From NCBI GenBank assembly GCA_963805085.1, contig CAWDTA010000002.1:1696001-1760000 (forward strand): a DNA stretch of 64,000 bases, given 5' to 3'. The stretch's first letter is position 1. Every line of letters begins with the position of its first letter. Positions 32,605 through 47,588 of the stretch are shown here, in pieces. The DNA is from an uncultured Veillonellaceae bacterium (GTDB lineage: Bacteria > Bacillota > Negativicutes > JARBTT01). Below the pieces are notes generated by a model that worked only from the letters and a program-made list of their open reading frames with translations, did no database searches and was not told the origin of the DNA. The translations under genes and the position numbers were made by a program.

Positions 32605-33006
32605 ATGCAAGAAGTAGTAAAGTTTTTACAAGAAAACGTCACCGGTTGTTTGGCAACGACTGAGGAGGGAAAACCAAAAGTCAGACCTTTTCAATTTATG
32701 TTAGAAGACGAAGGCAAATTCTTTTTCTGCACTAGCAATGAAAAAGATGTATGCAAGCAATTAAAGGCCAATCCATATGTGGAATTTACAAGTTCTTCGC
32801 CTAAGTTTGCTTGGATTCGGCTTAGTGGTAAAGTAGAATTCAGTAATGATGTAAAGATCAAAGAAAGGGTTCTTGAAATAAGTGGTTTAGTAAAATCCAT
32901 TTATAAAACAGCAGACAATCCGATTTTTGAACTATTTTATATTGAACATGGCACTGCGATACTTGCAGATTTTTCTGGTCAGCCCGCTAGAACAGTAAAC
33001 TTTTGA
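32605..33006 (+). CDS. Pyridoxamine 5'-phosphate oxidase family (FMN-binding split barrel) protein
   Basis: LAT.EGKPKVRPF, FCTS..K.V.KQL.ANP.VE, WIRLSG. Confidence 0.88.
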   Translation: MQEVVKFLQENVTGCLATTEEGKPKVRPFQFMLEDEGKFFFCTSNEKDVCKQLKANPYVEFTSSSPKFAWIRLSGKVEFSNDVKIKERVLEISGLVKSIYKTADNPIFELFYIEHGTAILADFSGQPARTVNF

Positions 33007-33038
33007 ACGGAGAACAAATAAAAAAACTTCAATAAAAA

Positions 33039-33330
33039 ACCTGATGATTTTTATCATCAGGTCAGCTTGTAGACAAAATAAAATATTTGTGCCGATGATT
33101 TAGAAAATATCTAAATCCGTTCCACTTATAAACTAGTACGAAGATAGGCTGCCGGTCGGTGAGAAGTGCTTAGATGCAAGGCTCAGTAAGGGGATGTGAA
33201 GGAGTCGTACCTGTGTACGTCGACGAACAGCACCTTACTGCAACGCTGCAGATGAGTGCTTATCGCCAACCCGCGGCCTATCTGTCCATAGTTTGTCTAA
33301 ATGCTGACCTGATGATTTTTATCATCAGGT
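33039..33330. mobile_element. Non-autonomous MITE-like element with terminal inverted repeats and duplicated palindromic target
   Basis: 24-bp direct repeat ACCTGATGATTTTTATCATCAGGT (33039-62, 33307-30); TIRs CAGCTTGTAGACAAA / TTTGTCTAAATGCTG; no transposase. Confidence 0.7.
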
Positions 33331-33583
33331 TTTTTCTCTATAAATACGGTCAATGATATTATCTGAATTTTCTATCGTAAACAATAATAAATCTTTATTT
33401 TTTTTATTGTAATAAGTTGGCTATAATGAAAATGTAAGTTATTTATAAAATGACCTACAAATGAAATCAATAAAATTTATGTTACGATAGTATATAACTA
33501 TCATAACAAGGTTGTAATTTTTTATTTTAGTGAAGCACTGCAATTGTTCGTGATTGCGATTAATGAGAAGAAGGTGAAAAGAG

Positions 33584-33874
33584 ATGGAGTTAATCACAAA
33601 AGGAAGAGCTGGGACATTGGAATCTGGCGATATTTGTGTTGTCGTTGAAAAAACGGATGCTGCAGGGATTGTGATTGATCTTGATAGTTCCGTTGCCAGT
33701 TTATTTGGCAGAGAGATTAAAGAAGTGATTACAAAAACAGTCAGTGACCATGGTTTTAAAGATGGCGTTAAAGTTACCGCAACAGATAAAGGTGCGTTAA
33801 ATTGCACGATCGCGGCAAGAGTGACAGCAGCATTATATCGCGCTGCTGAAAGCACAGAATTTAGTTGGAAGTAG
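33584..33874 (+). CDS. citD: Citrate lyase acyl carrier protein (gamma)
   Basis: AGTLESGD (Ser14), DKGAL.CTI.AR. Confidence 0.95.
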   Translation: MELITKGRAGTLESGDICVVVEKTDAAGIVIDLDSSVASLFGREIKEVITKTVSDHGFKDGVKVTATDKGALNCTIAARVTAALYRAAESTEFSWK

Positions 33875-33905
33875 AAGGCAAACAAAGAAAGGGCTGAGAG
33901 AAAAG

Positions 33906-34808
33906 ATGGCTATTAAACAGAGATTGCGTAGAACCATGATGTTTATCCCTGGAAACAATCCTGGTATGATGCGCGATGCACATATATACGGTTCGGACTC
34001 GATTATGTTCGACCTTGAAGACGCTGTATCGATGGCAGAAAAAGATGCGGCTCGCCTGCTTGTATTTAATGCAATAAAAACAATTGATTATGGAGATACA
34101 GAAGTTGTTGTTCGTATCAATCCACTTAACACACCTTACGGCAAAGCTGATATTGAAGCAATGGTTGTCGCTGGAGCACATGTACTTCGTATGCCAAAAA
34201 CCGAAACAGCAGAAGATATTACCGAATGCGAAGAATATATTGCTGAAATGGAAAAGAAACATGGCATTCCAGTAGGCAAAACACTCATGATGGCAGCAAT
34301 TGAAGGTGCGCTTGGCGTACTCAATGCCTATAAGATTGCTACTTCTTCTGATCGTTTGATTGGTATTGCAATCGGCGCAGAAGATTACTGTGCAAACATG
34401 AAAGCAAATAGAACAAAATCAGGGATTGAGCTTCAGTTAGCACGGGAAACAATTGTAGTTGCCGCACGGGCAGCTGGAATCGATGCACTTGATACAGTGT
34501 TCTCCGATGTGAACGATGAAGAACAACTGATCTATGAAGCTACCTTAGTAAAAGAAATGGGCTTTGATGGCAAATCCGTTATCAATCCTCGTCAGATTGG
34601 TCCAGTACATAAAGTATTTGCACCAACTGAAAAAGAAATTGAAAAGGCAAAACGTATCATTGCCGCAATTAAAGAAGCTGAAGCAAAAGGTTCTGGCGTT
34701 ATCAGCTTGAATGGTAAAATGGTCGACAGACCGGTTGTAATTCGTGCCGAACGTACGATTGAACTTGCAATCGCATCTGGCGTGCTATTACCAGAGGAGG
34801 TAGAGTAA
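33906..34808 (+). CDS. citE: Citrate lyase beta subunit
   Basis: RRTMMFIPGNN, FDLEDAV, GAEDY, GFDGKSVINPRQI. Confidence 0.96.
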   Translation: MAIKQRLRRTMMFIPGNNPGMMRDAHIYGSDSIMFDLEDAVSMAEKDAARLLVFNAIKTIDYGDTEVVVRINPLNTPYGKADIEAMVVAGAHVLRMPKTETAEDITECEEYIAEMEKKHGIPVGKTLMMAAIEGALGVLNAYKIATSSDRLIGIAIGAEDYCANMKANRTKSGIELQLARETIVVAARAAGIDALDTVFSDVNDEEQLIYEATLVKEMGFDGKSVINPRQIGPVHKVFAPTEKEIEKAKRIIAAIKEAEAKGSGVISLNGKMVDRPVVIRAERTIELAIASGVLLPEEVE

Positions 34809-36346
34809 TGAAAAATGCAATCAATCATGAAGTTTCAGCGCAGCTTCTTAAACATTTAGGTTTAGAATTTTACAGTGATAATGGCAAAGGAAAAGATTGC
34901 TCTACATTAAATGAACGTCTTGTAAAGAATGGCAAATTGGTAGATTCTTTAGAAGAAGCGATTAAAAAATCCGGTTTAAAAGATGGCATGACGATTTCTT
35001 TCCATCATCATTTTCGTAATGGTGATTATATTTTAAATATGGTTCTAGATAAATTAGCTAAGATGGGGTTCAAGAATTTAACCGTTGCATCCTCTAGTCT
35101 TTCAACAGCACATGCACCACTCATCGAACATATCAAAAGTGGTGTTGTGACAAAAATCGAAAGCTCTGGGATGCGTGATGATTTAGCAGATGCGATTTCA
35201 CATGGTTTGATGAAAGAACCTGTTATCTTCCGTAGTCATGGTGGACGTGCTTCGGCGATTGCCAATGGTAGTTTGCACATTGACGTGGCATTTCTTGGGG
35301 CACCATCCTCCGATGTTGTAGGGAATGCCAGCGGTGTTTATACTAACCCAGAAGGTAAATCCATCTGTGGTTCTCTCGGTTATGCAAAAGTGGATGCACG
35401 TTATGCAGCTACGACGATTATTCTTACGGATAATATTGTTGCATTTCCGAACGCTCCAGCATCGATTCCAGCAACTGACGTTGATTATGTGGTAAAAGTA
35501 GAGGCACTTGGTGATTCTAGTAAGATTTCTTCTGGTGCTACACGCTTTACCAAAAATCCTCGTGACTTACTGATTGCAGAAGCAGCTGCAAAAGTAATCC
35601 AAGAATCTGGTTACTTTACCGATGGCTTCTCCATTCAAACAGGTTCCGGCGGAGCGGCGCTTGCTGTGACTCGTTTTATCAGCGAAGAAATGGTAAAACG
35701 CAATATCAAAGCTCGGTTTGCGCTTGGTGGTATCACAGGACAAATCGTAAAATTATATGAAGAAGGCTTAATCGGAAAAATTCTTGATGTACAAGGATTT
35801 GATACGATTGCTGCCGAATCTCTAATCAATAATGCAGATCACATTGAAGTAGATGGCAACCAATATGCAAGCCCATTCAATGAAGGCTCCGCAATTCATC
35901 AACTTGATGTTGTTATCCTATCGGCATTAGAAGTTGACGTAAACTTCAATGTTAACGTATTGACTGGTTCTGACGGAGTAATCCGTGGTGCGATCGGTGG
36001 TCATCCAGATACAGCAAGCAAAGCAGCGCTTACCGTGCTTGTATCACCATTGATTCGTGGACGTATTCCTTGTATCTTAGATAAAGTAAATACACTTGTT
36101 ACACCTGGTTCTGTTTGTGACGTGCTCGTTACAGACCAAGGGGTTGCTGTAAATCCTAACCGCCCAGAAGTAAAAGAAAGACTCTTAAAAGCTGGCTTGA
36201 AAGTGACCACAATTGAAGCCTTGAAAGAAAGTGCTGAAAAAGTAGTTGGCATACCTGATCCATTGCAATTTATGGATAAAGTGGTTGCCGTGGTTACGCA
36301 TCCAGATGGTAGAGTATTAGACGTGATTCATGAGGTTAAAGCGTAA
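34808..36346 (+). CDS. citF: Citrate lyase alpha subunit / citrate-ACP transferase
   Basis: GMTISFHHHFRNGD, RSHGGR, QTGSGGA, GGHPDTA. Confidence 0.97.
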   Translation: MKNAINHEVSAQLLKHLGLEFYSDNGKGKDCSTLNERLVKNGKLVDSLEEAIKKSGLKDGMTISFHHHFRNGDYILNMVLDKLAKMGFKNLTVASSSLSTAHAPLIEHIKSGVVTKIESSGMRDDLADAISHGLMKEPVIFRSHGGRASAIANGSLHIDVAFLGAPSSDVVGNASGVYTNPEGKSICGSLGYAKVDARYAATTIILTDNIVAFPNAPASIPATDVDYVVKVEALGDSSKISSGATRFTKNPRDLLIAEAAAKVIQESGYFTDGFSIQTGSGGAALAVTRFISEEMVKRNIKARFALGGITGQIVKLYEEGLIGKILDVQGFDTIAAESLINNADHIEVDGNQYASPFNEGSAIHQLDVVILSALEVDVNFNVNVLTGSDGVIRGAIGGHPDTASKAALTVLVSPLIRGRIPCILDKVNTLVTPGSVCDVLVTDQGVAVNPNRPEVKERLLKAGLKVTTIEALKESAEKVVGIPDPLQFMDKVVAVVTHPDGRVLDVIHEVKA

Positions 36347-36347
36347 C

Positions 36348-36881
36348 ATGTCTCACGCACTATTCGAAGGAATTTCCATAACGTTAGAAGAAGTTTTAAC
36401 AAATAAAGAAGCCCGCGCTGCCTTGCAACGCGAGCTTCTTGCTCAATATAAGAATCCAATCATTTCTTTTACTATCAATATGCCAGGTAGTGTAAAATTA
36501 AACAATGCAAGTCGTCTGTTATACAAGGAAGGCATAGACCGGTTAAAAGATGCGCTGGAACGTGCGTATATTTTAGTTAATGATATTCGGTATGTAGAAA
36601 GTTTTACTGGACTAGAAGCGCTTTTTTCGGTTCGCAGTGATGCGCGGACGTTAAAAAAAATTGCTTGCGGTATTGAAGATCAAGATGCAGTCGGTAGATT
36701 GTTTGATATGGATGTACTCGATGTGGATGGCGTTCCGATCAGTCGCAGTGTACTTGATTTTCCGAAACGAAAGTGCTTAATTTGCCAGCAAGATGCGGTG
36801 ATTTGTGCGCGGTCGCAGCAGCATTCGCCAGAAGAATTATTGAAACAGATTGAAAAAGCTGTTGTAGAAATACAAAAGTAA
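36348..36881 (+). CDS. citX: Apo-citrate lyase phosphoribosyl-dephospho-CoA transferase
   Basis: INMPGSVK, GRLFDMDV, SR...RKCLIC..A..CARS..H. Confidence 0.92.
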   Translation: MSHALFEGISITLEEVLTNKEARAALQRELLAQYKNPIISFTINMPGSVKLNNASRLLYKEGIDRLKDALERAYILVNDIRYVESFTGLEALFSVRSDARTLKKIACGIEDQDAVGRLFDMDVLDVDGVPISRSVLDFPKRKCLICQQDAVICARSQQHSPEELLKQIEKAVVEIQK

Positions 36882-36913
36882 GATCATAAGAGAATGAGCA
36901 AAGGAGAATAGCG

Positions 36914-37954
36914 ATGGAATCTTTTACAGAAGAAACATTTGAATTGCAAGAGTTGCCACAATCATTAAAGAGCAGTCGTAAGCTTGTAGCAGATTTTTTG
37001 GCGAAATTCGATTTAGCCTATGATACCTTAGACTCTTATGTTGGATTATTCGCTGGGGATAAGCTCGTGGCCGGTGCTGGTTATCAAGGGGCAACGATCA
37101 AATGTGTCGCTGTAGATCCTAGCTATCAACAATGCGGTTTATCAAATAAAGTCATTTCGCATTTATGTAGTGAACTATGGACACAAGGGGTATCCAATAT
37201 CTTCGTATTTACCAAACCGAAGAATAGCAACCAATTTACTGGTGCAGGTTTTCATCTCATCGCCAGTTCACCAGCAGCCATTTTGCTAGAGAGTAGTAAG
37301 AACGGCATTACTGACTATGCCAAATCCTTAGAACGTTATCGCCAAACAGGGGTGCAAGGTGCGATTGTGATGAATGGCAATCCATTTACCCTAGGACATC
37401 GATATTTGGTAGAGTGGGCGGCGCGGCAGTGTGATCATCTGCATATCTTTGTGGTGGAAGAGGATAAGTCTAGTTTCCCATTTCATGTGCGAAAAAGGCT
37501 AATCGAAGAAGGGACCAAAGACCTCAAAAATGTGACGGTTCATAGTGGTGGAGAGTATATCATATCGTCAGCGACCTTTCCTTCCTACTTTATCAAGGAA
37601 TTATCCGAGATTGCCAAAACCTATGCCGAGCTTGACCTCAATATTTTTGCCAAGCATATTGCGCCAGCACTTTCGATTACAAAACGTTTCGTCGGTAGTG
37701 AGCCAACCGATCCATTGACCTGCGCTTATAATGAAATCATGCAGATAGAATTGCCACAGTTTGGTGTTGAACCGATAATTCTCGAACGCAAAGAAAAAGA
37801 AGGGCAACCAATATCGGCCTCAAGGGTACGCAAACTCCTTGGACAAAATGATATTACTGGTGCAAGTAAGCTTGTGCCAAGGGCTACTGCAACGTATTTT
37901 TTAACAACAGAAGGTCAGCAGATTATCGAAAAGTTACAACATGCGGTCGGTTGA
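36914..37954 (+). CDS. citC: [Citrate (pro-3S)-lyase] ligase
   Basis: IVMNGNPFTLGH.YL, ISSATFPSYF, RFVGSEP, ISASRVR. Confidence 0.96.
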   Translation: MESFTEETFELQELPQSLKSSRKLVADFLAKFDLAYDTLDSYVGLFAGDKLVAGAGYQGATIKCVAVDPSYQQCGLSNKVISHLCSELWTQGVSNIFVFTKPKNSNQFTGAGFHLIASSPAAILLESSKNGITDYAKSLERYRQTGVQGAIVMNGNPFTLGHRYLVEWAARQCDHLHIFVVEEDKSSFPFHVRKRLIEEGTKDLKNVTVHSGGEYIISSATFPSYFIKELSEIAKTYAELDLNIFAKHIAPALSITKRFVGSEPTDPLTCAYNEIMQIELPQFGVEPIILERKEKEGQPISASRVRKLLGQNDITGASKLVPRATATYFLTTEGQQIIEKLQHAVG

Positions 37955-38840
37955 GAGGAGCAGTTTGATGAGTTTATCACCACAGGAGATTGGCCGTTTT
38001 GGAGTGCAGTCCCTTTTATATGAAGTAGCCGTTACGCCCAAACCAGGCTTGGTTGATCGCCATAGTGCCGGTGCCCATAAGGATATGGATTGCTTTACTT
38101 TTTTAGCGAGTACGGCAGCTTTAGCACCTTATTTTACGCAGTTTGCCCAAAAAGGAGCAGAGTGTGCCAAGGAAGAACCAAAAGCTTTGTTTCGGGCGAT
38201 TCGCCCAATTGGTATTGCGGCGGAACGTTGTATGTTTGCCGCGACAACTGGTGTCAATACCCATAAAGGGGCGATTTTTTCTCTTGGGTTAGTTTGCAGC
38301 GCTGCGGGCTGTCTTGTGGCAAACGGGACAGAACTTACGCCAGAAAATGTTGCAGGATATGTGGGTAATATGATAGCGGGGATTTGTGCAGAGGAATATC
38401 ACGGGATCGAAGCAAAGCAAAATCTGACCAAGGGCGAACAAATCTATCTGCGTTATGGCTTAACAGGCGTGCGCGGTGAAGCGGAACAAGGTTTTCCGAG
38501 TGTACTAAGATATTCATATCCGGTACTGGAAGATTGCTTGCTATGCGGTAGATCGATCAATGAAAGCATGTTGCAGGCGTATCTGCAGTTAGCTGGAAAT
38601 GTAGATGATACCAACGTTTTAGGACGTCACGATATGGAAGTTTCTACGTATGTAAAAGCAGAAACGCAAAAAATTTTACACGTTGGCGGTGCGTTAGAGC
38701 CAGAAAATATAGCTTTGCTAGAAGCGATGGATGATGATTTTATCACGAAGAATATCAGCCCGGGCGGTTGTGCTGATTTATTGGCATTAACGATGCTTTT
38801 ATTTTCACTAGCAAATCCTACATGGAAATATAAAGTGTAG
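37941..38840 (+). CDS. citG: Triphosphoribosyl-dephospho-CoA synthase, copy 1
   Basis: EV..TPKPGLVD, GVNTHKGAIF, G.RGEA, SPGGCADLLA. Confidence 0.96.
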   Translation: MRSVERSSLMSLSPQEIGRFGVQSLLYEVAVTPKPGLVDRHSAGAHKDMDCFTFLASTAALAPYFTQFAQKGAECAKEEPKALFRAIRPIGIAAERCMFAATTGVNTHKGAIFSLGLVCSAAGCLVANGTELTPENVAGYVGNMIAGICAEEYHGIEAKQNLTKGEQIYLRYGLTGVRGEAEQGFPSVLRYSYPVLEDCLLCGRSINESMLQAYLQLAGNVDDTNVLGRHDMEVSTYVKAETQKILHVGGALEPENIALLEAMDDDFITKNISPGGCADLLALTMLLFSLANPTWKYKV

Positions 38841-39010
38841 AAAATGTACCTTGCTCTACTTGTCTGATCTTGTATCAACATAAACTGACCTAGATCAGAC
38901 TTGGTGGACACTTAGAACAGCTGATAAAATAATTGCAACAAGGGACAAAATGAATATTTTAGATGAAATAAAAAAGCTTCCGAAATATCGGAAGCTTTGA
39001 ATTATCTATA

Positions 39011-39052
39011 GAGCTGATAATAGGATTCGAATCTCGACCTGCTCATTACGAA
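39011..39052 (-). tRNA. Degenerate 3' tRNA fragment, probably Thr(CGT) (att-site remnant)
   Basis: Minus strand: TTCGTAATGAGCAGGTCGAGATTCGAATCCTATTATCAGCTC, with anticodon loop CGT and TTCGAATC T-loop; stems eroded. Confidence 0.6.
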
Positions 39053-39540
39053 CAGTACACATAATACTGGTCTAAATGAAGCCTACAGTCGAGTGTTCAA
39101 GAAGAACGGCGCGGCGGGGGCAGATGACATCCTCAAGCCTTTTGTTTATAAAACAGAATCTACTACTTTATCTATACTTTTAAGTATATGATTATCTGGT
39201 GTTTTATCATATATAATGGAATATAAACTTAGTTGTTTTGATTTAGGTCTAAGCATGCCAAAAACCCACTTTTTTGATGCATCTCATGCCTTTGTTATGG
39301 ACGAAATATGTGTTATTTTGCCATAATTTTACTTATTGAGTGTTTTTAACCTGTCCACTTGTCCTATTACATTTTAGGTAGTGTATAAGAATTTAATGTC
39401 AATGTTTATAAAAAGATTTACATATATGGTTTTTTATTGTAAGATAAGAGCAAATAAATAACAAATAAGGCGTCAAATAACAAAATGAAATTTAGAACAA
39501 TTTAGTAAGTTTTAGATCAGAATTACTAAGAGGTGGAGAC

Positions 39541-39690
39541 ATGATAGTTAAAAAAATTATAGAGGCTTTAGAACTTCAGAAAGAAAAACTCAACAATTTT
39601 CATTATGGACAGATTATCATGAGTATTCAAGATGGCGAAGTTAATCGGATAGATTATCATGAAAGCTATTTGATTAAACATAAAAAATAG
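39541..39690 (+). CDS. Small DUF2292/YezD-like protein (49 aa)
   Basis: GAGGTGG RBS; MIVKKIIEALELQKEKLNNFHYGQIIMSIQDGEVNRIDYHESYLIKHKK matches the YG.I.I.IQDG.V..I pattern. Confidence 0.65.
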   Translation: MIVKKIIEALELQKEKLNNFHYGQIIMSIQDGEVNRIDYHESYLIKHKK

Positions 39691-39717
39691 ATTAGTAGGC
39701 TGACTAGAATAACTGGA

Positions 39718-39755
39718 AGCCGATACTGTCATTTAATGATAGTGTCGGCTTTTTA
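39718..39755 (+). terminator. Intrinsic terminator upstream of the accessory cluster
   Basis: AGCCGATACTGTCAT-TTA-ATGATAGTGTCGGCT-TTTT. Confidence 0.8.
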
Positions 39756-40033
39756 TTTACTCAAGGATGATGACGCCAATTTTAAATTGGGACATGCGCT
39801 AGTCTATTATTAGGTTACAATTTTAGAGCAATGATTTCTTGGTAAAGTATCAAAACCAAATTTTTAAATGAATGCCTATAGTTTATAGCCTATTGTATTG
39901 ATATTTATTTAAGGATAACAACGCTCGATATTGGGATGATTGTGATGGCATATGGTACAAAATTCTAAAATAGAAGGTGGGATTTTTCAAACGAAATTGT
40001 CTAGAACAATTAAAAAAATGGGGAGATGAAAAA

Positions 40034-40321
40034 ATGCAAGAAAAATACGAAGTAATTGAAAAAGTAGGATCTGACATGTCTTATGATTTAGTCGTTGAGG
40101 TAATAAATAAAGTAGAAAAAAAAGTTAAGATAGAATGTTATCAACCGCAATTAAAAAATCAAGTAGATGAGTTTTATAATTCAATAAAAGACGAGGTATA
40201 TAAAATACTAAATGGATTTGAGTATTCTATAAATATAATAATATCAAATAAAGTTCCGGATAAATTTGTATGGTTAGGGAGGATAGAAGGAGCGGTACAA
40301 AAAGTAAAAGAAATGTCCTAA
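40034..40321 (+). CDS. Divergent CitD-like acyl carrier protein
   Basis: VGSDMSYDLVVEV aligns with CitD AGTLESGDICVVV (Ser kept); NKVPDKFVWLGRIEGAV aligns with DKGALNCTIAARVTAAL; 95 aa; upstream of citE-like gene. Confidence 0.65.
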   Translation: MQEKYEVIEKVGSDMSYDLVVEVINKVEKKVKIECYQPQLKNQVDEFYNSIKDEVYKILNGFEYSINIIISNKVPDKFVWLGRIEGAVQKVKEMS

Positions 40322-40353
40322 GGCAAAAATGCAAATGGAGGTATTGAATAATA

Positions 40354-41229
40354 ATGTTGGAAAAAAATTTATGGGGTGCTCATTTATTTATGCCAGCGAA
40401 TAATGCGGGATATATTTTTTATACACCATTAATTAATGCGAAAAACATCATTTTGGATTTAGAATATGCAACTAATATTGATAAAAAAATAGAAGCAAGA
40501 TACTTGTTAAAATATGCAATTTCATATTTGAAAAAATTACGACCAGATATGAACGTTTGTGTCAGGATTAATCTACCTTGGATAAAGAAATTTTGCTATG
40601 AAGACATAAAAGCAATAATTGATGCAGAACCTGATTCATTGAGAATACCATCAGTAAGGGATAGAAAGGATATAGAATTAATTGAAAACATAATTGATGA
40701 TTTGGAACAAAAAAATGGGAAAAATTATGATAAAATAAAATTTCAGCCAATGATAGAGAGCCCTAAAGGATTTTCTAATATTCGTGAAATTGCAGGTGCA
40801 TCAAAGCGAAATATAGCTTTATGCTTAGGGGGAGAAGATTGGGCATATAATGTAGGTTTAGAACGGCATAAACATTCGCGAGAACTAGAATATGTGAGAG
40901 TTGAAATGGTAACAGTTGCTGCAGAATATGGTTTGTTTTCGGTGGATACTGTTTACCCGTGGCTTGATGATAAAGTAGGATTTGAAAAAGATTCTAAAAT
41001 AGCAAGAGAGTATGGAATGTGTGCAAGGGCTATCCAAAACCCTAAACAGTTAAACGAAGCAAATGAAATATATAAGCCTTCAGAAGAACGCTATAAGTGG
41101 GCGGAAGATTTGCTATCTAGTGTAGTTAAAGAATATGTTGATGATTGTGAAGTTTTTATCTTCCATAACAAAATTATTGACTCGCAGGAACTTGTTCAAG
41201 CTAATAAAATTTTAGCTTTTCAAAAATGA
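40354..41229 (+). CDS. CitE-like (HpcH/HpaI aldolase/citrate lyase family) enzyme
   Basis: LFMPANN, LDLEYA, VRIN, MIESPKG, LGGEDW, DTVY, NPKQL. Confidence 0.88.
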   Translation: MLEKNLWGAHLFMPANNAGYIFYTPLINAKNIILDLEYATNIDKKIEARYLLKYAISYLKKLRPDMNVCVRINLPWIKKFCYEDIKAIIDAEPDSLRIPSVRDRKDIELIENIIDDLEQKNGKNYDKIKFQPMIESPKGFSNIREIAGASKRNIALCLGGEDWAYNVGLERHKHSRELEYVRVEMVTVAAEYGLFSVDTVYPWLDDKVGFEKDSKIAREYGMCARAIQNPKQLNEANEIYKPSEERYKWAEDLLSSVVKEYVDDCEVFIFHNKIIDSQELVQANKILAFQK

Positions 41230-41255
41230 TAAATTTGAAAAAGGAGGGTTGAAGA

Positions 41256-41651
41256 ATGAAAGAAATTATTATTCCGAGTGATATTTCTAAAGCGACTGCT
41301 AGGTATGTTCCAGGAATAAAAACTAGTGTTACTCAAAAAACAAATTTTTTATTTATAAGTGGACAAGTATCAATTAATAAAGATGGTAATATTGTAGGAA
41401 AAGGAGAGCCTGAAAAACAAACTATTACGGCATTTGAAAATATACGAAAGGTTTTAAAAAAAGCAGGTGGGGATATTGAGAATCTTGTCGCAATTACTAT
41501 TTATATTACTGATTTAGAAAATCTTAAAGTTATTTCAAACGTAAGAAACAACTACTTTGAAAAATCTGCAGTTACAAGTACTCTAGTTGAAGTTAAAGGT
41601 CTGGTAAATCAGGAGTTGTTAGTTGAGATTAGTGGTCTAGCGGTATTGTAG
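41256..41651 (+). CDS. RidA/YjgF family protein
   Basis: LFISGQV, QT..AFENI..VL..AG, VRNNYF, STLVEVKGL..LLVEI. Confidence 0.92.
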   Translation: MKEIIIPSDISKATARYVPGIKTSVTQKTNFLFISGQVSINKDGNIVGKGEPEKQTITAFENIRKVLKKAGGDIENLVAITIYITDLENLKVISNVRNNYFEKSAVTSTLVEVKGLVNQELLVEISGLAVL

Positions 41652-41709
41652 TATAAAAGTAACTAGATCAAAACAATAATAAGCGATTCAAGGGAGGAGA
41701 ATAAGTAGT

Positions 41710-42789
41710 ATGTTGAGTGAATTGAGGAAACTAGATGGTGAAATCCGTGTAGAAGATATTAAAGAGATTGCATATAAGTTTAATATCGTATCTTTGGGAA
41801 AAAGTGACATAGTAATTTCTAATGAGGACTGCAAAAATGTTTTGATAAGATCTGTTGATCACAATCAGTTAGAAAAAGATTGGGTTATATTACAAGATAT
41901 TTGCCAAAAATATCAGAATAGAAAAATGGATAGAAGTATTAATTCAATTAAAGTGTGTAGAAAAAACAAAGAAAAATATTATAGCTATGATGAAATATTA
42001 GAAAGTGGTTTATTGAAAATTATGCCAAATGGAAATATTGTATTGTTGGGTGATTTAGTTGAACTGCTCTCAAGTATAGACAATTATATCTTAAAGTTTG
42101 CCAAAAGCAATCACGCAACACAATTTTATTCAAGTCCTTTGTGGAAAGAAAACGAATTGAATGGTTTTGGATATATGAAAGATGATTTGATGTTGTACAA
42201 ATTGAATCATATTAATGATAGTAATAATGATCATTATTGGCAAATGGCAGTATGTGATAATATATGGAGATATTTAAAAGATAGTGACATAAAAGATTCT
42301 CAAATTTTCACATCAATAGGAGTATGTAGTAGAAGAGAAGGTAGTCAATACTTTATATTAGAAAGAATGAAGTTATTTCACATGAGAGAAGTTGTTTTTA
42401 TTGGGACATCTGAGAGTGTTCAAAACTTTAGAGACAAAATGATGGAGTTTTCTATAAAAATGATAAATGATTTTGAATTAGATTCATATATTGAAGATGC
42501 AAATGATCCATTTTTCTTAAATAATGAAGACTTAAACTGTGAAAATGAATATCATTATCCAGGTGATGTAAAAAAAGAATTGAGAGCTAATCTTTATGGG
42601 AAAAAATCCCTTGCGATAGCGAGTTTCAATATTCATGGAGATTATTTTACCCAAAATCTCAATATAAATTCAGAAAAGCATGATAGCCTCTGGACAACTT
42701 GTGCTGCATACGGAATAGAAAGGTGGGTATGGGCGGTTTTATCACAGCATGGTCCATATAAGAAAAATTGGCCTAAAATATTAATTTAA
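41710..42789 (+). CDS. Class II aaRS-like (atypical SerRS-type) amino acid:[carrier protein] ligase
   Basis: AVC, CSRREG (motif 2), RM..FHMREVVFIG, ANDPFF, K.EL, AIASFNIHGDYF, TTCAAYGIERW..A...QHG (motif 3); no obvious tRNA-binding coiled coil. Confidence 0.8.
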   Translation: MLSELRKLDGEIRVEDIKEIAYKFNIVSLGKSDIVISNEDCKNVLIRSVDHNQLEKDWVILQDICQKYQNRKMDRSINSIKVCRKNKEKYYSYDEILESGLLKIMPNGNIVLLGDLVELLSSIDNYILKFAKSNHATQFYSSPLWKENELNGFGYMKDDLMLYKLNHINDSNNDHYWQMAVCDNIWRYLKDSDIKDSQIFTSIGVCSRREGSQYFILERMKLFHMREVVFIGTSESVQNFRDKMMEFSIKMINDFELDSYIEDANDPFFLNNEDLNCENEYHYPGDVKKELRANLYGKKSLAIASFNIHGDYFTQNLNINSEKHDSLWTTCAAYGIERWVWAVLSQHGPYKKNWPKILI

Positions 42790-42801
42790 TAGGAGCCTTT
42801 A

Positions 42802-43341
42802 GTGAAAGATAAACTGATTCTGAAAGAAATTTTAGATTTGAAAAGTGAATTATATATAGTTAAAAATAAATTGATTAGTTTGATTAGTAAACATGGAACA
42901 TTAGTGAGCGTTGGGTTAAATATACCGGGCTGGCCTAAATATAATGATAAGATAGAACAATATTTTAATAGTTGTTTTCCTATAATTAGGAAAAAAATGA
43001 GACTAGATGTGGTTTTATATAAATATATAAATAAGGCAGGTGTATTTTATTTTTTGGAATCTATACAAACTCCTATAGCTTTAAAAAAAGTAGCAATTGA
43101 AATAGAAGAAATGGATTGTTACTTTAGATTATTAGATATTGACTGTTATAATAACGAGGGAATATCTATTAATAGAAGAGCTTTAGGATATGAAGAGAGA
43201 AAATGCTTATTATGTAATAATGATGCAAGTTATTGTATTGGAAATAACATACATGATAGTTTGTCTTTAAGAAAAAAAGCAATGAGTATAATAGTGGAGA
43301 GTAGAGAAAAATATCATAATTTTTTGGGTATATCTGAGTGA
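42802..43341 (+). CDS. Second CitX-like holo-ACP synthase
   Basis: LNIPGWPK, LKK.AI.IEE, RLLDID, R..LGYEERKCLLC...A..C....H. Confidence 0.85.
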   Translation: MKDKLILKEILDLKSELYIVKNKLISLISKHGTLVSVGLNIPGWPKYNDKIEQYFNSCFPIIRKKMRLDVVLYKYINKAGVFYFLESIQTPIALKKVAIEIEEMDCYFRLLDIDCYNNEGISINRRALGYEERKCLLCNNDASYCIGNNIHDSLSLRKKAMSIIVESREKYHNFLGISE

Positions 43342-43482
43342 CAGATATACCTTTGTTTTTACGGAAAAAGCCACTTGGCTCTAAAACAATAATAGGAAAA
43401 TCATACATGGATAATTTCAGGTGTTGATCTTAAAGGCTTAAGTATGTATGAATAACCGTCAAAAATATTTGGAGGGAATGTT

Positions 43483-44661
43483 ATGATACAAGGGAAAAGT
43501 AAAGTTGCTTTGAACGATAAGGTACTGGTTGTGATATTAGGTTTGGCAGGGTTGATTTCTGCAGCGGATAACTGGGTTGTCTCGCCAATTTTGCCAGCAA
43601 TCGCAAATGGATTTGGAGTTTCTATTTCCCAAGTTGGAGTTGTTTTAACAGCATACATGATACCTTATGGAATGATGCAACCCGTTTATGGATTCCTTAG
43701 TGACCGCTGGGGGAAAGCCAATATATTGAAATGGATTATTTATGGACTTTCTTTAGGAACTATTGGCTGTGCTCTTTCGAATTCTTTATGGATGTTGTGT
43801 TTCTGGCGAGCTATTACGGGCTTTTTTGCTGCAGGAATTATTGCTGTGTCTTTAGCATTAATTGGTGATAGTGTGCCAGTCTTGGAGCGTCAGATCCATG
43901 TTGGTAGGTTTATGGGGATTGTTTTTCTAGGGCAGGGTTTGAGTGTTGGGCTAGGGGGGATTTTTGCTGAATACATTAGTTGGCGAGTTGCATTTATTAT
44001 TTTCGCCGGAGCTGCACTCTGTATTGTCTTCTTTTTGAAGAAACTGCCCAAGGATTCTCCTAATCCTATAAATCGTATCAATCGTAATTTTTTTTCTGAA
44101 GTTAAGCAGGTAACTTTAACTCCAAAAGGGAGAGTCATTTTCCCATTAGCTCTGGCTGCGGGATTTTTATTGCTTGGTCTATATAGTTATTTGGGATCCT
44201 TCCTACATGAGGTTACAGGGTTGGATTATTTACAGGTTGGGATAGTAGTAATGTTTTACGGCTTTGCTTGTCTATTCGCAGGTTCTCAAGTTGGAAATTT
44301 TGGGAAAAAAATTGGACAAAAAAAGGTTATCATAAATGGTGAATTACTTGCTGTAGTTGCGGCTTTACTCTTAGCAGCTTTTCCATATTGGCAAACTGGG
44401 TGGTTAGCTACAGTCAGTCTAGGGGTCGGATATATTTTCATTCAATCTACCTTAGCAACAATTGCTTTTGATGTAGCAACTGAGAGTAAGGGGCTTCCTT
44501 CAGCGTTGGTTGGATTTGGACTTTTTGGTGGAGGTGGCTTAGGCACTGCATTTAGTAGTTTGCTGCTTTTACAATATGGGTATCAAACTCTTTGGATGGT
44601 TTTGGGTGCTGGAATAATACTTTTCATTTTTATTACAGCTAGTTTGCAATTTGAGTGTTGA
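43483..44661 (+). CDS. MFS transporter (drug:H+ antiporter-like)
   Basis: SPILPAIA..F, YGFLSDRWGK motif A, about 12 TM. Confidence 0.92.
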   Translation: MIQGKSKVALNDKVLVVILGLAGLISAADNWVVSPILPAIANGFGVSISQVGVVLTAYMIPYGMMQPVYGFLSDRWGKANILKWIIYGLSLGTIGCALSNSLWMLCFWRAITGFFAAGIIAVSLALIGDSVPVLERQIHVGRFMGIVFLGQGLSVGLGGIFAEYISWRVAFIIFAGAALCIVFFLKKLPKDSPNPINRINRNFFSEVKQVTLTPKGRVIFPLALAAGFLLLGLYSYLGSFLHEVTGLDYLQVGIVVMFYGFACLFAGSQVGNFGKKIGQKKVIINGELLAVVAALLLAAFPYWQTGWLATVSLGVGYIFIQSTLATIAFDVATESKGLPSALVGFGLFGGGGLGTAFSSLLLLQYGYQTLWMVLGAGIILFIFITASLQFEC

Positions 44662-44695
44662 AACAATGATGAGACGAAGGAACTAGGTTAAAGTG

Positions 44696-44745
44696 TTGAA
44701 AAAGTAGTAGTGAGCACACCTGATTCATTACAATTTACAGATAAG
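44696..44745 (+). pseudogene. Degenerate citF 3' fragment fused to citC tail
   Basis: GAAAAAGTAGT..GCACACCTGATTCATTACAATTTACAGATAAG resembles citF 36236-36280 GAAAAAGTAGTTGGCATACCTGATCCATTGCAATTTATGGATAAA. Confidence 0.65.
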
Positions 44746-44768
44746 GCAGATTATCGAAAAGTTACAAC

Positions 44769-45677
44769 ATGCGGTCGGTTGAGAGGAGTAGTTTGATGAG
44801 TTTATCACCACAGGAGATTGGCCGTTTTGGAGTGCAGTCCCTTTTAAATGAAGTAGCCGTTACGCCCAAACCAGGCTTGGTTGATCGCCATAGCGCCGGT
44901 GCCCATAAGGATATGGATTGCTTTACTTTTTTAGCGAGTACGGCAGCTTTAGCACCTTATTTTACGCAGTTTGCCCAAAAAGGAGCAGAGTGTGCCAAGG
45001 AAGAACCAAAAGCTTTGTTTCGGGCGATTCGCCCAATTGGTATTGCGGCGGAACGTTGTATGTTTGCCGCGACAACTGGTGTCAATACCCATAAAGGGGC
45101 GATTTTTTCTCTTGGGTTAGTTTGCAGCGCTGCGGGCTGTCTTGTGGCAAACGGGACAGAACTTACGCCAGAAAATGTTGCAGGATATGTGGGTAATATG
45201 ATAGCGGGGATTTGTGCAGAGGAATATCACGGGATCGAAGCAAAGCAAAATCTGACCAAGGGCGAACAAATCTATCTGCGTTATGGCTTAACAGGCGTGC
45301 GCGGTGAAGCGGAACAAGGTTTTCCGAGTGTACTAAGATATTCATATCCGGTACTGGAAGATTGCTTGCTATGCGGTAGATCGATCAATGAAAGCATGTT
45401 GCAGGCGTATCTGCAGTTAGCTGGAAATGTAGATGATACCAACGTTTTAGGACGTCACGATATGGAAGTTTCTACGTATGTAAAAGCAGAAACGCAAAAA
45501 ATTTTACACGTTGGCGGTGCGTTAGAGCCAGAAAATATAGCTTTGCTAGAAGCGATGGATGATGATTTTATCACGAAGAATATCAGCCCGGGTGGTTGCG
45601 CGGATTTATTGGCATTAACGATGCTTTTATTTTCACTAGCAAATCCTACATGGAAGTATAAGATAAATAAAAAATAA
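44769..45677 (+). CDS. citG: Triphosphoribosyl-dephospho-CoA synthase, copy 2
   Basis: Nearly identical to 37941-38840 (Y26N, different last residues). Confidence 0.95.
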   Translation: MRSVERSSLMSLSPQEIGRFGVQSLLNEVAVTPKPGLVDRHSAGAHKDMDCFTFLASTAALAPYFTQFAQKGAECAKEEPKALFRAIRPIGIAAERCMFAATTGVNTHKGAIFSLGLVCSAAGCLVANGTELTPENVAGYVGNMIAGICAEEYHGIEAKQNLTKGEQIYLRYGLTGVRGEAEQGFPSVLRYSYPVLEDCLLCGRSINESMLQAYLQLAGNVDDTNVLGRHDMEVSTYVKAETQKILHVGGALEPENIALLEAMDDDFITKNISPGGCADLLALTMLLFSLANPTWKYKINKK

Positions 45678-45887
45678 AAAATACCCTAAAAATACCCTAT
45701 AGAATAAGCACAAAAGGAGAGTGTTCATTCTATAGGGCATTTTTCATTCGATCATTTCCAATTGTTTAAGTAAAATAGCTTTATCAAAAATATAAATACA
45801 TATTTAGATAAATTGGAGAAAAACTATTTTATTCGAGCTTACATCAGGTAAACAAATTTTTATAGATAGAGTATTGGCTATGAATAA

Positions 45888-45916
45888 GTATAAAAAGGAG
45901 TATTCAACAAATACTA
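45888..45916 (+). promoter_or_regulatory. Possible forespore sigma-G promoter
   Basis: GTATA-17-AATACTA upstream of a germinant receptor operon. Confidence 0.4.
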
Positions 45917-45962
45917 TGAAGGAAATATTAACCTATATAGTAAATGTAAGGAGGTAGGGGAG

Positions 45963-47588
45963 GTGAAGCGGAAGCAAACTATTGGTATTAAGATAAAAAA
46001 GTTGTTGCAAAAAATTATTAAATATATTATGCAGGCATCGGATGAGGCAGAAACTGAGTTTATAGAACCAAGTCAAAGCATGATGAAGCAGCGAATATCA
46101 CAAAACTTAGAAGATAATGAAGCTTTTTTCAAAAATATATTTGATAAGTCATCTGATATTATTTTTCGTAACTTTCAAGTAGGCAAAAATCAGGCTGGCT
46201 TACTTATTTTTATAGATGGTCTTATTAATAGCGAAGCAGTGAATTCAGATGTACTAAGACCCCTAATCCAATATGGCAATAATGCAAATCAAGAAGAAAT
46301 ATTAAAAGAAAGTAATATTAAGAATATTTTACAGAATCAAGTTATTACTACGGCGCAACTAAGTGGAGGCAAAACAAACGAAGAAGTAGTGAAAAGCGTT
46401 CTAACAGGGGATGTAGCAATTTTAATCGATGGGATGGGGCAGGCCATTTTTGCCAGTATGCGCCAATGGGATAAACGCAGTGTGGATGAACCACAGGTCG
46501 AACCTGTTATACGGGGACCGCGGGAAGGTTTTACAGAAAGCCTAAGGACGAATACCAGCATGGTTCGAAGAAGGTTAAAAACTCCTACTTTAAAAACTGA
46601 GCTTATGAAGGTTGGTAGACTATCGCAAACTGATGTTGTCATTATTTATCTTACAGGTATTTGCGATGAAAGCTTAGTTGACGAAATTCGCAAAAGAATC
46701 AGCCAGATTGATATTGATGCCATCTTGGATAGTGGTTATATTGAAGAATTAATTGAAGATAATCCATCATCTGTTTTTCCTCAACTTGCCCATACCGAAC
46801 GACCGGACAAGCTAGCTAGTAGTTTGCTTGAGGGTCAAGTTGGGATTATGGTTGATAATACACCGTTTGCCTTAATTGCGCCTCACCCTTTTTTCCGAAT
46901 GATGCAAGCGCCTGATGATTATTATGAACGTGCCTTAGGGATGAGTCTTATTCGGCTGCTTCGCTATGTATTCTTATTTATTGCACTACTGATGCCTGCT
47001 GTGTATATAGCGTTATCAACCTTTCATCAGAGTATGATTCCCACGGAGCTTTTACTTTCTATGGCAGCTTCTCGAGAAAATATTCCCTTCCCAGCTTTTA
47101 TTGAAGCGATGATAATGGAGATATTCTTTGAGGCTTTACGGGAAGCAGGCGTACGTCTGCCCCGACCGGTAGGGCAAACGGTAAGTATTGTCGGGGCACT
47201 AGTCATAGGACAAGCTGCCATCCAGGCTGGTATTGTGTCAGCTCCCATGGTTATTACGGTCTCTATTACAGGAATTGCCTCCTTCACTGTGCCGCAGTTT
47301 AATCAAGCTGTAGCTATTCGCGTACTTCGTTTTATGTTGATGATTTTAGCTGGCATGCTTGGTCTTTACGGGGTATTCATGGGTTTTCTAGTTATTTTAA
47401 TCCATATGGCAAGTTTACGGTCTTTTGGTGTTCCGTATCTATCGCCGATAGCTCCACTGGAATTGTCTAGTCTTAAAGATGTATTTATCCGGGTTCCTTG
47501 GTGGGCGATGGTGACTCGCCCGGGATTTACAGTTAATGAGGATATCAAGCGGATGAAAAGTTCGCTGCGTCCTCGGCCTCCCAAATAG
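45963..47588 (+). CDS. Spore germination receptor A subunit (GerKA-like)
   Basis: IRGPREGFTESL.TN, TERPD, PFPAFIEA, REAGVRLP. Confidence 0.95.
   Translation: MKRKQTIGIKIKKLLQKIIKYIMQASDEAETEFIEPSQSMMKQRISQNLEDNEAFFKNIFDKSSDIIFRNFQVGKNQAGLLIFIDGLINSEAVNSDVLRPLIQYGNNANQEEILKESNIKNILQNQVITTAQLSGGKTNEEVVKSVLTGDVAILIDGMGQAIFASMRQWDKRSVDEPQVEPVIRGPREGFTESLRTNTSMVRRRLKTPTLKTELMKVGRLSQTDVVIIYLTGICDESLVDEIRKRISQIDIDAILDSGYIEELIEDNPSSVFPQLAHTERPDKLASSLLEGQVGIMVDNTPFALIAPHPFFRMMQAPDDYYERALGMSLIRLLRYVFLFIALLMPAVYIALSTFHQSMIPTELLLSMAASRENIPFPAFIEAMIMEIFFEALREAGVRLPRPVGQTVSIVGALVIGQAAIQAGIVSAPMVITVSITGIASFTVPQFNQAVAIRVLRFMLMILAGMLGLYGVFMGFLVILIHMASLRSFGVPYLSPIAPLELSSLKDVFIRVPWWAMVTRPGFTVNEDIKRMKSSLRPRPPK

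Follow-up and report, generated by a model that had tools for sequence, protein, structure and literature searches.

A rare seryl-tRNA synthetase-like ligase proposed to aminoacylate a citrate lyase-type carrier in an uncultured Veillonellaceae bacterium

Introduction

Amino acid:carrier protein ligases derived from aminoacyl-tRNA synthetases (aaRSs) are the classic link between the ribosomal and non-ribosomal ways of activating amino acids, and those that we know of so far work only with phosphopantetheine carriers. Carriers that bear 2'-(5''-phosphoribosyl)-3'-dephospho-CoA are, to our knowledge, known from only two systems, citrate lyase and malonate decarboxylase. Because dephospho-CoA makes up the distal arm of the prosthetic group in citrate lyase, that arm ends in the same pantetheine thiol. 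Here, we describe a gene cassette that may join these two kinds of chemistry. It lies in a 64,000-nucleotide stretch of DNA from an uncultured Veillonellaceae bacterium (NCBI GenBank assembly GCA_963805085.1, contig CAWDTA010000002.1, positions 1,696,001 to 1,760,000 of the forward strand; hereafter the window, in which position 1 is the first letter), and it includes an open reading frame (ORF) on the plus strand, 41710–42789, that encodes a ligase of 359 amino acids resembling a class II seryl-tRNA synthetase (SerRS) with a Zn triad.

In citrate lyase, CitG and CitX are responsible for making the prosthetic group and for its attachment; the thiol of the group receives an acetyl residue from CitC, CitF swaps the acetyl for a citryl group, and CitE cleaves the citryl-S-acyl carrier protein (ACP), as set out in PMC10798043. 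The aaRS-derived ligases load Gly or Ala onto the phosphopantetheine thiol and leave tRNA uncharged (PMC5370406 and PMC9437257), and one of them, Bll0957, was crystallized with CoA according to the title of PDB entry 3pzc. We propose that the ligase of the window stands in for CitC and loads an amino acid onto the thiol of a phosphoribosyl-dephospho-CoA carrier to give an aminoacyl-S-carrier, a reading to which we assign a probability of about 0.6 and for which the support is wholly computational. The proposed enzyme is a Zn-dependent class II aaRS-derived amino acid:carrier protein ligase from a rare clade with a switched carrier type; its candidate carrier is no phosphopantetheine ACP but a CitD/MdcC-like protein of 95 amino acids that CitX and CitG would prime.

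Results

The sequence-only reading of the window had described the product of 41710–42789 as a stand-alone homolog of atypical, methanogen-type SerRS and of the truncated enzymes that act on carrier proteins. The ORF is preceded by a strong ribosome binding site (AGGGAGGAG) about 10 nt 5' of it, and every segment on which that reading relied is present: AVC (residues 180–182, 42247–42255), CSRREG of motif 2 (residues 206–211, 42325–42342), MRE (residues 225–227, 42382–42390), ANDPFF (residues 264–269, 42499–42516), SFNIH (residues 305–309, 42622–42636), TTC (residues 329–331, 42694–42702), and YGIERW of motif 3 (residues 334–339, 42709–42726), all on the plus strand. Residues 179–357 match two NCBIfam models for atypical SerRS, NF002120 (E 1.6e-31, 109.5 bits against a cut-off of 611) and TIGR00415 (E 7.7e-27, 93.9 bits against a cut-off of 489.55); residues 195–356 match the amino acid:[ACP] ligase model NF005479 (E 1.7e-31). 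Because it scores below the curated cut-offs of both NF002120 and NF005479, the ligase is a divergent branch and no plain member of either named family. The sole Pfam match is a sub-threshold one to tRNA-synt_2b. Among PDB sequences, the best match is the type-2 SerRS of M. kandleri (3w3s, 3.3e-18), and the others include the Bll0957 ligase (4h2w, 2.9e-14; 3mey, 8.3e-14) and the SerRS of M. barkeri (2cim, 5.4e-14).

An AlphaFold2 (AF2) model built on a 16-sequence alignment (mean predicted local distance difference test score, pLDDT, 86.6) points to the same two groups of enzymes. Methanogen-type SerRS and Bll0957 head the Foldseek matches (1e-22 to 1e-17). In VIA comparisons, residues 49–359 of the model correspond to residues 151–506 of 3w3s_A (Z 31.1); 2cj9_B is matched with Z 28.0 and a root mean square deviation (rmsd) of 2.6 over 277 amino acids; and residues 91–359 correspond to residues 18–310 of Bll0957 chain 4h2w_B (Z 26.4, rmsd 2.8, 255 amino acids). 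Since the Bll0957 match spans residues 91–359, these residues make up the catalytic core of the model. The NCBIfam, PDB, and structural matches, together with the conservation of the catalytic residues, establish that the motif matches are more than chance, and they bear out the assignment as a stand-alone homolog of atypical SerRS and amino acid:carrier protein ligases.

The metal triad that had been read from the sequence is likewise supported by alignment. The residues Cys182, Arg208, Glu210, Glu227, Cys331, Glu337, and Arg338 are invariant in all 16 aligned ligase relatives. The first proposed Zn ligand, Cys182 (codon 42253–42255), aligns with the Cys of 'aqCppfw' in 2cim and of 'paqCepfy' in 3w3s; the second, Glu227 (codon 42388–42390), with the Glu of 'fhriEiv' in 2cim and 'frmrEyv' in 4h2w; and the third, Cys331 (codon 42700–42702), with the Cys of 'sgCsgvG' in 2cim and 'tgCvafG' in 4h2w. 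Cys331 is followed by the GIERW of motif 3, which contains Arg338. In HMMER alignments, all three residues fall on ligand positions of 2cim, and Glu227 and Cys331 fall also on those of 4h2w. We take the Zn ligands to be Cys306/Glu355/Cys461 in M. barkeri SerRS and Glu176/Cys279 in Bll0957; both numberings fit the deposited chains at an offset of 20. The sequence-only reading would have been undercut by a lack of ATP-binding residues or by a place among canonical tRNA synthetases; the ATP-binding arginines are present, and the searches did not place the ligase among canonical synthetases.

The region ahead of the core had been described as an unrecognized N-terminal extension of roughly 100 residues that might dock the carrier. 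It is somewhat shorter, spanning residues 1 to about 90 (41710–41979, plus strand), and is predicted by AF2 to form a compact alpha/beta domain of order beta-alpha-beta-beta-alpha-beta. It is indeed unrecognized: it has no Pfam match, and an Atlas feature search with residues 1–92 gave a best score of 0.76, under the lead threshold. The domain is kept in close relatives and has no invariant polar residue in the 16-sequence alignment. The idea that it might serve as a built-in carrier was rejected, as it has no invariant serine and its strand order is unlike that of the carrier model described below. A predicted complex of the ligase with the 95-amino acid carrier scored 0.00, a verdict neither way.

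The ligase gene forms part of a low-GC island (GC 30–32%) that lies beside a complete host citrate lyase operon. All genes of the island are on the plus strand, in the order carrier, CitE-like, RidA, ligase, CitX, major facilitator superfamily (MFS) transporter, citG. The CitX (179 amino acids, 42802–43341; Pfam CitX 6.1e-30), a putative holo-carrier synthase that would act as apo-carrier phosphoribosyl-dephospho-CoA transferase, is the second of the window and is divergent, being 27% identical to the host CitX. The CitG at the cassette end (44769–45677; Pfam CitG 1.1e-81) is a predicted triphosphoribosyl-dephospho-CoA synthase. Pfam scans of the island ORFs detected neither CitF nor CitC, and they detected no PP-binding or ACPS domain and no phosphopantetheinyl transferase (PPTase). 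The proposed assignment of the ligase as the loader of a CitD-like carrier follows from this composition: compared with citrate lyase, CitG, CitX, a carrier, and a CitE-family protein are retained, CitC and CitF are missing, and an aaRS-like ligase is new. It follows also from the chemistry of the characterized relatives, which aminoacylate pantetheine thiols, the same thiol that ends the citrate-lyase prosthetic group.

The candidate carrier (40034–40321, plus strand, with the ribosome binding site GGGGAG before the ATG at 40034) has 95 amino acids and belongs to no Pfam family. Seven relatives could be found, including a 'hypothetical protein' from each of C. felsineum and C. saccharoperbutylacetonicum, and across the family of eight, Gly12, Ser13, Asp14, Ser16, Tyr17, Asp18, Leu19, Pro75, and Arg83 are invariant, the first seven forming a GSDxSYDL loop. 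The AF2 model (pLDDT 90) has the order beta-beta-beta-alpha-beta-alpha and places the invariant motif in the first hairpin loop. An exhaustive VIA comparison ranks the malonate decarboxylase carrier MdcC (5vit_C) fourth (Z 6.6, rmsd 3.6, 81 aligned residues of a 97-residue chain), with residues 6–92 of the model corresponding to residues 15–97 of the chain. When projected by this constant chain-range offset, which is not a residue-level alignment, Ser16 falls near MdcC Ser25. The latter is the attachment site and sits at the tip of a beta-hairpin loop, according to PMC5534430. Ser16 (or Ser13) is our proposed bearer of 2'-(5''-phosphoribosyl)-3'-dephospho-CoA. Against the host CitD, BLASTP gives an E value of 0.026 in the C-terminal half, and searches of PDB sequences returned chance matches only. 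The assignment of this protein as the carrier is therefore based mainly on the dedicated CitX and CitG and on gene position and size, with the fold as consistent support.

The ligase is rare. A word search of 5.8 billion sequences gave one close relative of the ligase (P0002 from Clostridium felsineum, 42% identity), an exhaustive search of 1.84 billion representatives gave 18 matches at E ≤ 1e-30, with about a dozen full-length relatives, and none of 40 related genomes has the gene. A single-protein query recovered no related loci, and a query with a multi-sequence alignment did recover them. Full-length relatives are present in seven other distinct readable loci: metagenome-assembled genomes of a gammaproteobacterium (L002), a member of the Bacillota (L003), and a member of the Anaerolineae (L004); three loci from metagenomes (L040, L041, and L042); and plasmid p337 of C. 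felsineum DSM 794 (L062). A further locus, L043, is identical to L042 in its figures, so the two count as one, and two more C. felsineum records are left out of the count.

The neighborhood of the ligase recurs in these loci. A CitE-like gene lies directly upstream in all five that have an upstream flank (the contigs of L040 and L041 begin 160 and 76 nt before the ligase relative), and citG lies directly downstream in six of the seven; L004 has only a 64-amino acid CitG-like fragment at the contig end, 5.6 kb away. CitX is encoded in five of the seven (the L040 contig ends inside citG). A profile of the eight carrier sequences detects the carrier family in four (L002, L003, L042, and L062), and the contigs of two of the other three end too early; the fragment L058 gave a weak match (E 2e-4). 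The carrier is thus encoded together with CitX and CitG in the window, L002, L003, L042/L043, and L062. RidA is found in two of the seven loci and an MFS transporter in three, L002 having an amino-acid permease instead. No CitF or CitC was detected in Pfam scans of L002–L004 or in the annotation of L062, with L042 covered by tblastn with the island proteins only, and no PP-binding protein or PPTase was detected among the neighbors in L002–L004 (Pfam) or in the L062 annotation. The Cit-type context of the ligase is hence conserved across several phyla and on a C. felsineum plasmid, with L004 as a partial exception. In a library representative of 558 amino acids (P0021), residues 3–239 match ligase residues 123–349 with 44% identity and residues 279–546 form a CitG domain, an apparent ligase–CitG fusion or a read-through of gene calling. 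A search for longer proteins of 630–2000 amino acids found no fused forms of the ligase, which is weak evidence.

A tree of 159 sequences (FastTree, LG+gamma, midpoint root; search proteins of 250–440 amino acids plus 12 locus-derived sequences, shorter and longer ones being left out) places the window ligase and the Cit-context ligases together in a single clade, which has 14 tips at a support of 0.94 or 15 at a support of 1.0. More distant loci, which match over the core only, have other surroundings. Pfam scans of 42 of the 74 ORFs picked there, a set without L007, L008, and most minus-strand ORFs, detected ACPS in L045; an ACPS–PP-binding protein in L055; PP-binding, AurF, and MMPL proteins in L005; KAS III, AurF, and a reductase in L052; a KS in L059; AurF in L050; and nothing in L047. 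Distant relatives on an A. pseudofirmus plasmid and on pSCL4 of S. clavuligerus are located near BtrH-N, an ACP, and a PP-binding protein, and near a PPTase and a condensation-domain protein, respectively. Searches by tblastn with the island proteins found Cit-type neighbors in none of L005–L009, L044, L045, L047–L057, and L059–L061.

L046 (5735–8601) is an exception. Its ligase relative is 31% identical over residues 96–356 and joins the next clade of the tree (29 tips), at a weak support of 0.70. The cassette also contains a small ORF with a weak PF06857 match (E 0.0017), a short HpcH-like gene, and a 258-amino acid protein composed of a CitX domain (residues 7–162) and a PP-binding domain (residues 193–245); the fusion of CitX to an ACP domain of the four-helix type is unusual.

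The remaining genes of the window cassette encode a C–C lyase-like protein, a RidA-family protein, and a transporter. The CitE-like, HpcH-family protein (291 amino acids, 40354–41229, plus strand; Pfam HpcH_HpaI 9.8e-31) matches the citE model TIGR01588 with E 1.5e-44 and 152 bits, below the cut-off of 443, and its closest PDB entries are CLYBL (5vxc, 8.3e-22) and malyl-CoA lyase (4l9y, 3e-17). It shares Glu135 and Asp162, which we presume to be the metal ligands, invariantly with the host CitE, at an overall identity of 26%, and it resembles acyl-thioester C–C lyases and synthases. The RidA-family (YjgF/L-PSP) protein has 131 amino acids (41256–41651, plus strand; Pfam Ribonuc_L-PSP 7.1e-25; TIGR00004 1.2e-19, below cut-off). 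The MFS transporter (392 amino acids, 43483–44661, plus strand; MFS_1 1.2e-48) is closest to drug or metabolite efflux types, with Bcr/CflA as the best NCBIfam match (3.1e-22, below cut-off). It is 67% identical to its counterpart in L003 (11450–12613), and the other cassette proteins are only 25–44% identical; this difference suggests a separate history of the transporter or a stronger constraint on it.

The host operon upstream of the island (GC 42%) comprises citD (33584–33874), citE (33906–34808), citF (34808–36346), citX (36330–36881), citC (36914–37954, 3.8 kb upstream of the ligase gene), and citG (37941–38840, plus strand). The island is flanked by the two copies of a 916-nt direct repeat (37918–38833 and 44746–45661, plus strand) with seven mismatches clustered near the ends; the repeat near-exactly duplicates the host citG ORF and 23 nt upstream, the first copy containing host citG and the second the citG at the cassette end. 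The arrangement is compatible with single-crossover integration at citG or with gene conversion. The 1.1-kb AT-rich spacer (GC 31%) between the first citG and the cassette contains an ORF of 49 amino acids (39541–39690) with a sub-threshold DUF2292 match (E 8e-4), after which comes a strong terminator-like hairpin (39715–39753). Another such hairpin is located at 43326–43352; just after it, a food-metagenome contig otherwise 95–99% alike to the window skips 41 nt in the CitX–MFS intergene (43405–43447). The whole genome has exactly two CitX and three CitG matches. The third CitG (252 bits) is located outside the window beside a second PF06857 carrier (74.8 bits; G000:C2:901739-902901), and for this reason the genome appears to hold a further phosphoribosyl-dephospho-CoA system in addition to the window's two.

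Short contigs from food and salt-marsh metagenomes, two separate studies, match stretches of the carrier, CitE-like, ligase, CitX, and MFS genes at 95–99% likeness; they leave some of the island uncovered, as well as the flanks at both citG copies. Close relatives of the island hence exist outside this assembly.

Discussion

In our proposed sequence of events, each step of which is drawn from protein families, homology, or gene context, CitG would make 2'-(5''-triphosphoribosyl)-3'-dephospho-CoA, and the island CitX would attach the prosthetic group to a serine in the carrier's GSDxSYDL loop. The ligase would then bind a small alpha-amino acid through its Cys182/Glu227/Cys331 Zn site and activate it with ATP (Arg208, Arg338) as the aminoacyl-adenylate. 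By analogy with the Bll0957-type relatives and from the gene context, the aminoacyl group would be passed to the terminal thiol of the dephospho-CoA arm of the carrier. What follows is speculative: the CitE-like enzyme may form or cleave a C–C bond at the alpha-carbon of the aminoacyl group while this is tethered as a thioester, for example by the addition of glycyl-S-carrier to a 2-oxo acid or an aldehyde such as glyoxylate to give a beta-hydroxy-alpha-aminoacyl-S-carrier, or by the opposite reaction, followed by hydrolysis. RidA would quench enamine or imine by-products, and the MFS transporter would move substrate or product. Claisen or aldol-type chemistry is suggested by the likeness of the CitE-like protein to CLYBL and malyl-CoA lyase and by its Glu135 and Asp162, and we hold it as a tentative and rather doubtful part of the scheme. 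As the cassette has no CitF-type transferase, release would be hydrolytic and each turnover would be driven by ATP, in the manner of an assembly line, unlike the cyclic mode of citrate lyase.

The ligase is closest in kind to the Bll0957/Atu2573-type amino acid:carrier protein ligases (NF005479; 3mey, 3mf1, 3pzc, 4h2s, 4h2w), with which it shares the truncated methanogen-type SerRS core, the Cys/Glu/Cys positions, the arginines of motifs 2 and 3, and a stand-alone gene that adjoins a presumed carrier. It differs from them in its additional N-terminal domain, its separate clade, and its CitE-like partner; moreover, their carrier is a four-helix phosphopantetheine ACP served by a PPTase, whereas the presumed carrier here is a beta-sheet protein of the CitD/MdcC-like kind, with CitX and CitG in place of the PPTase. 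In fold as in sequence, the core is matched best by methanogen-type SerRSs (NF002120, TIGR00415; 2cim, 2cj9, 3w3s), with aligned Zn positions and a similar length of the loop from ANDPFF to the KxE strand, but the ligase lacks most of their N-terminal tRNA-binding domain (359 versus about 520 amino acids). Like CitC, it would use ATP to acylate a phosphoribosyl-dephospho-CoA carrier on its thiol (the role of CitC being as given in PMC10798043). CitC is a cytidylyltransferase-like protein (Citrate_ly_lig) of unrelated fold, however, and the acyl group here would be an amino acid and not acetate. The cassette as a whole resembles citrate lyase and malonate decarboxylase in its CitG, CitX, small carrier, and CitE-family lyase, and departs from them in having no CitF/MdcA transferase, CitC, or decarboxylase, in a carrier missed by PF06857, and in the addition of an aaRS-like ligase and often of RidA and a transporter.

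The kind of enzyme is known; what is new is the type of carrier, the additional N-terminal domain, and the set of partner enzymes. No link between aaRS-like ligases and CitX, CitG, or dephospho-CoA carriers was found in the full texts searched, a set outside which most subscription journals lie; term co-occurrences were incidental in PMC12363473, PMC6971185, and PMC5370406, the last of which has the terms in separate sections. A search of the same scope for Bll0957 or 'amino acid carrier protein ligase' returned only an unrelated Bradyrhizobium paper. In RefSeq, the ligase and the carrier of C. felsineum p337 are both labeled 'hypothetical protein'. The pairing of such a ligase with a CitD-type carrier has most likely not been described so far.

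Several observations weigh against the assignment of the ligase to a CitD-type carrier. Its score on NF005479 (109.3 bits) is below the curated cut-off of 357, the function of its clade is a computational prediction, and the amino acid and the substrate of the CitE-like enzyme are guesses. For the carrier, Pfam at E values up to 10 returns nothing but a chance match to SRP54_N, and PF06857 misses it in a search of the whole genome, where the host CitD and a single further locus are the only matches. Alignment by hhalign to 30 CitD sequences gives a P value of 0.067 and a probability below 1%, albeit in the expected register (GSDaSYDL over GTlESsDI), so that kinship with CitD/MdcC is not established by sequence. 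Foldseek returns nothing below E 1e-3 for the carrier model, and the fold match to MdcC (Z 6.6) is tied with those to unrelated proteins of the same fold, such as the RNase P protein (Z 7.1). The window cassette itself differs from the others in gene order and, unlike L002, L003, L042, and L062, has no divergent citG of its own, only the copy of the host gene, and L004 shows neither carrier nor CitX in its 12 kb.

Four other explanations were considered. A second SerRS that still charges tRNA, for instance an antibiotic-resistant or stress copy, would account for true methanogen-type SerRSs being among the best sequence and fold matches. The ligase has 359 residues against about 520, however, and since the SerRS alignment covers only residues 49–359 of the model, most of the SerRS N-terminal domain is without a counterpart; the score of 109.5 bits is also far from the cut-off of 611. 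A canonical serS is encoded elsewhere in the genome (G000:C2:1248923-1250170, 591.7 bits against a cut-off of 301.65). The ligase is not the housekeeping SerRS, and the presence of that gene makes a role outside translation likely. The window has no tRNA gene, and an Rfam E-value scan of 33000–47000 detected neither a T-box nor a riboswitch or leader ahead of the cassette, only sub-threshold matches on a terminator hairpin. We regard a second tRNA-charging enzyme as extremely improbable. That the island is a decaying, non-functional remnant of a horizontal acquisition is very improbable as well: its low GC, rearranged gene order, and missing CitG of its own, and the absence of the gene from the one same-genus genome searched, would fit decay, but all six island ORFs are intact, each with a ribosome binding site, the catalytic residues are invariant, and pieces of the island recur at 95–99% likeness in two metagenome studies.

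The two further alternatives concern the acceptor. The ligase could be a classical amino acid:carrier protein ligase that serves a phosphopantetheine ACP encoded elsewhere in the genome, its Cit-type neighbors being coincidental. All characterized relatives use such carriers (PMC5370406 and PMC9437257), and distant relatives in L005, L045, L055, H4, and H6 adjoin PP-binding, ACPS, or PPTase genes. Coincidence is nevertheless hard to square with the repetition of the Cit-type context in several phyla, the ligase–CitG fusion, the separate clade of the Cit-context ligases, and the lack of PP-binding and PPTase genes in the island, among the L002–L004 neighbors, and in the L062 annotation, and we judge this explanation quite unlikely. 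Unlikely too, to a lesser degree, is a ligase that only activates an amino acid and hands it to a small molecule (free CoA, an amine, or whatever the CitE-like enzyme produces) while the carrier is acylated by other means. The aaRS paralogs with small-molecule acceptors are tabulated in a review (PMC9437257), and the title of 3pzc indicates that Bll0957 binds free CoA; but the cassette has no other acyl-activating enzyme or transferase of the CitC, CitF, or MdcH type, and a thiol carrier primed by its own CitX would be left without a loader. Loading of the CitD-like carrier by the ligase remains the explanation that we prefer.

A broader interpretation is more doubtful still than the lyase chemistry that it includes: the cassette may constitute a third phosphoribosyl-dephospho-CoA carrier system, in which an aaRS-derived ligase tethers glycine or another small amino acid and a CitE-family enzyme carries out Claisen or aldol chemistry at its alpha-carbon without pyridoxal phosphate. 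If this is true, the system would make or cleave beta-hydroxy-alpha-amino (di)acids, such as beta-hydroxyaspartate, which would then be exported or imported. It would widen the set of acceptors for aaRS-type catalytic cores, and a rare prosthetic group would gain amino-acid-based chemistry. Because the cultured type strain C. felsineum DSM 794 has the cassette on a plasmid, the proposal is directly testable, and, if borne out, it would assign a function to the ligase and the carrier of p337 that RefSeq lists as hypothetical.

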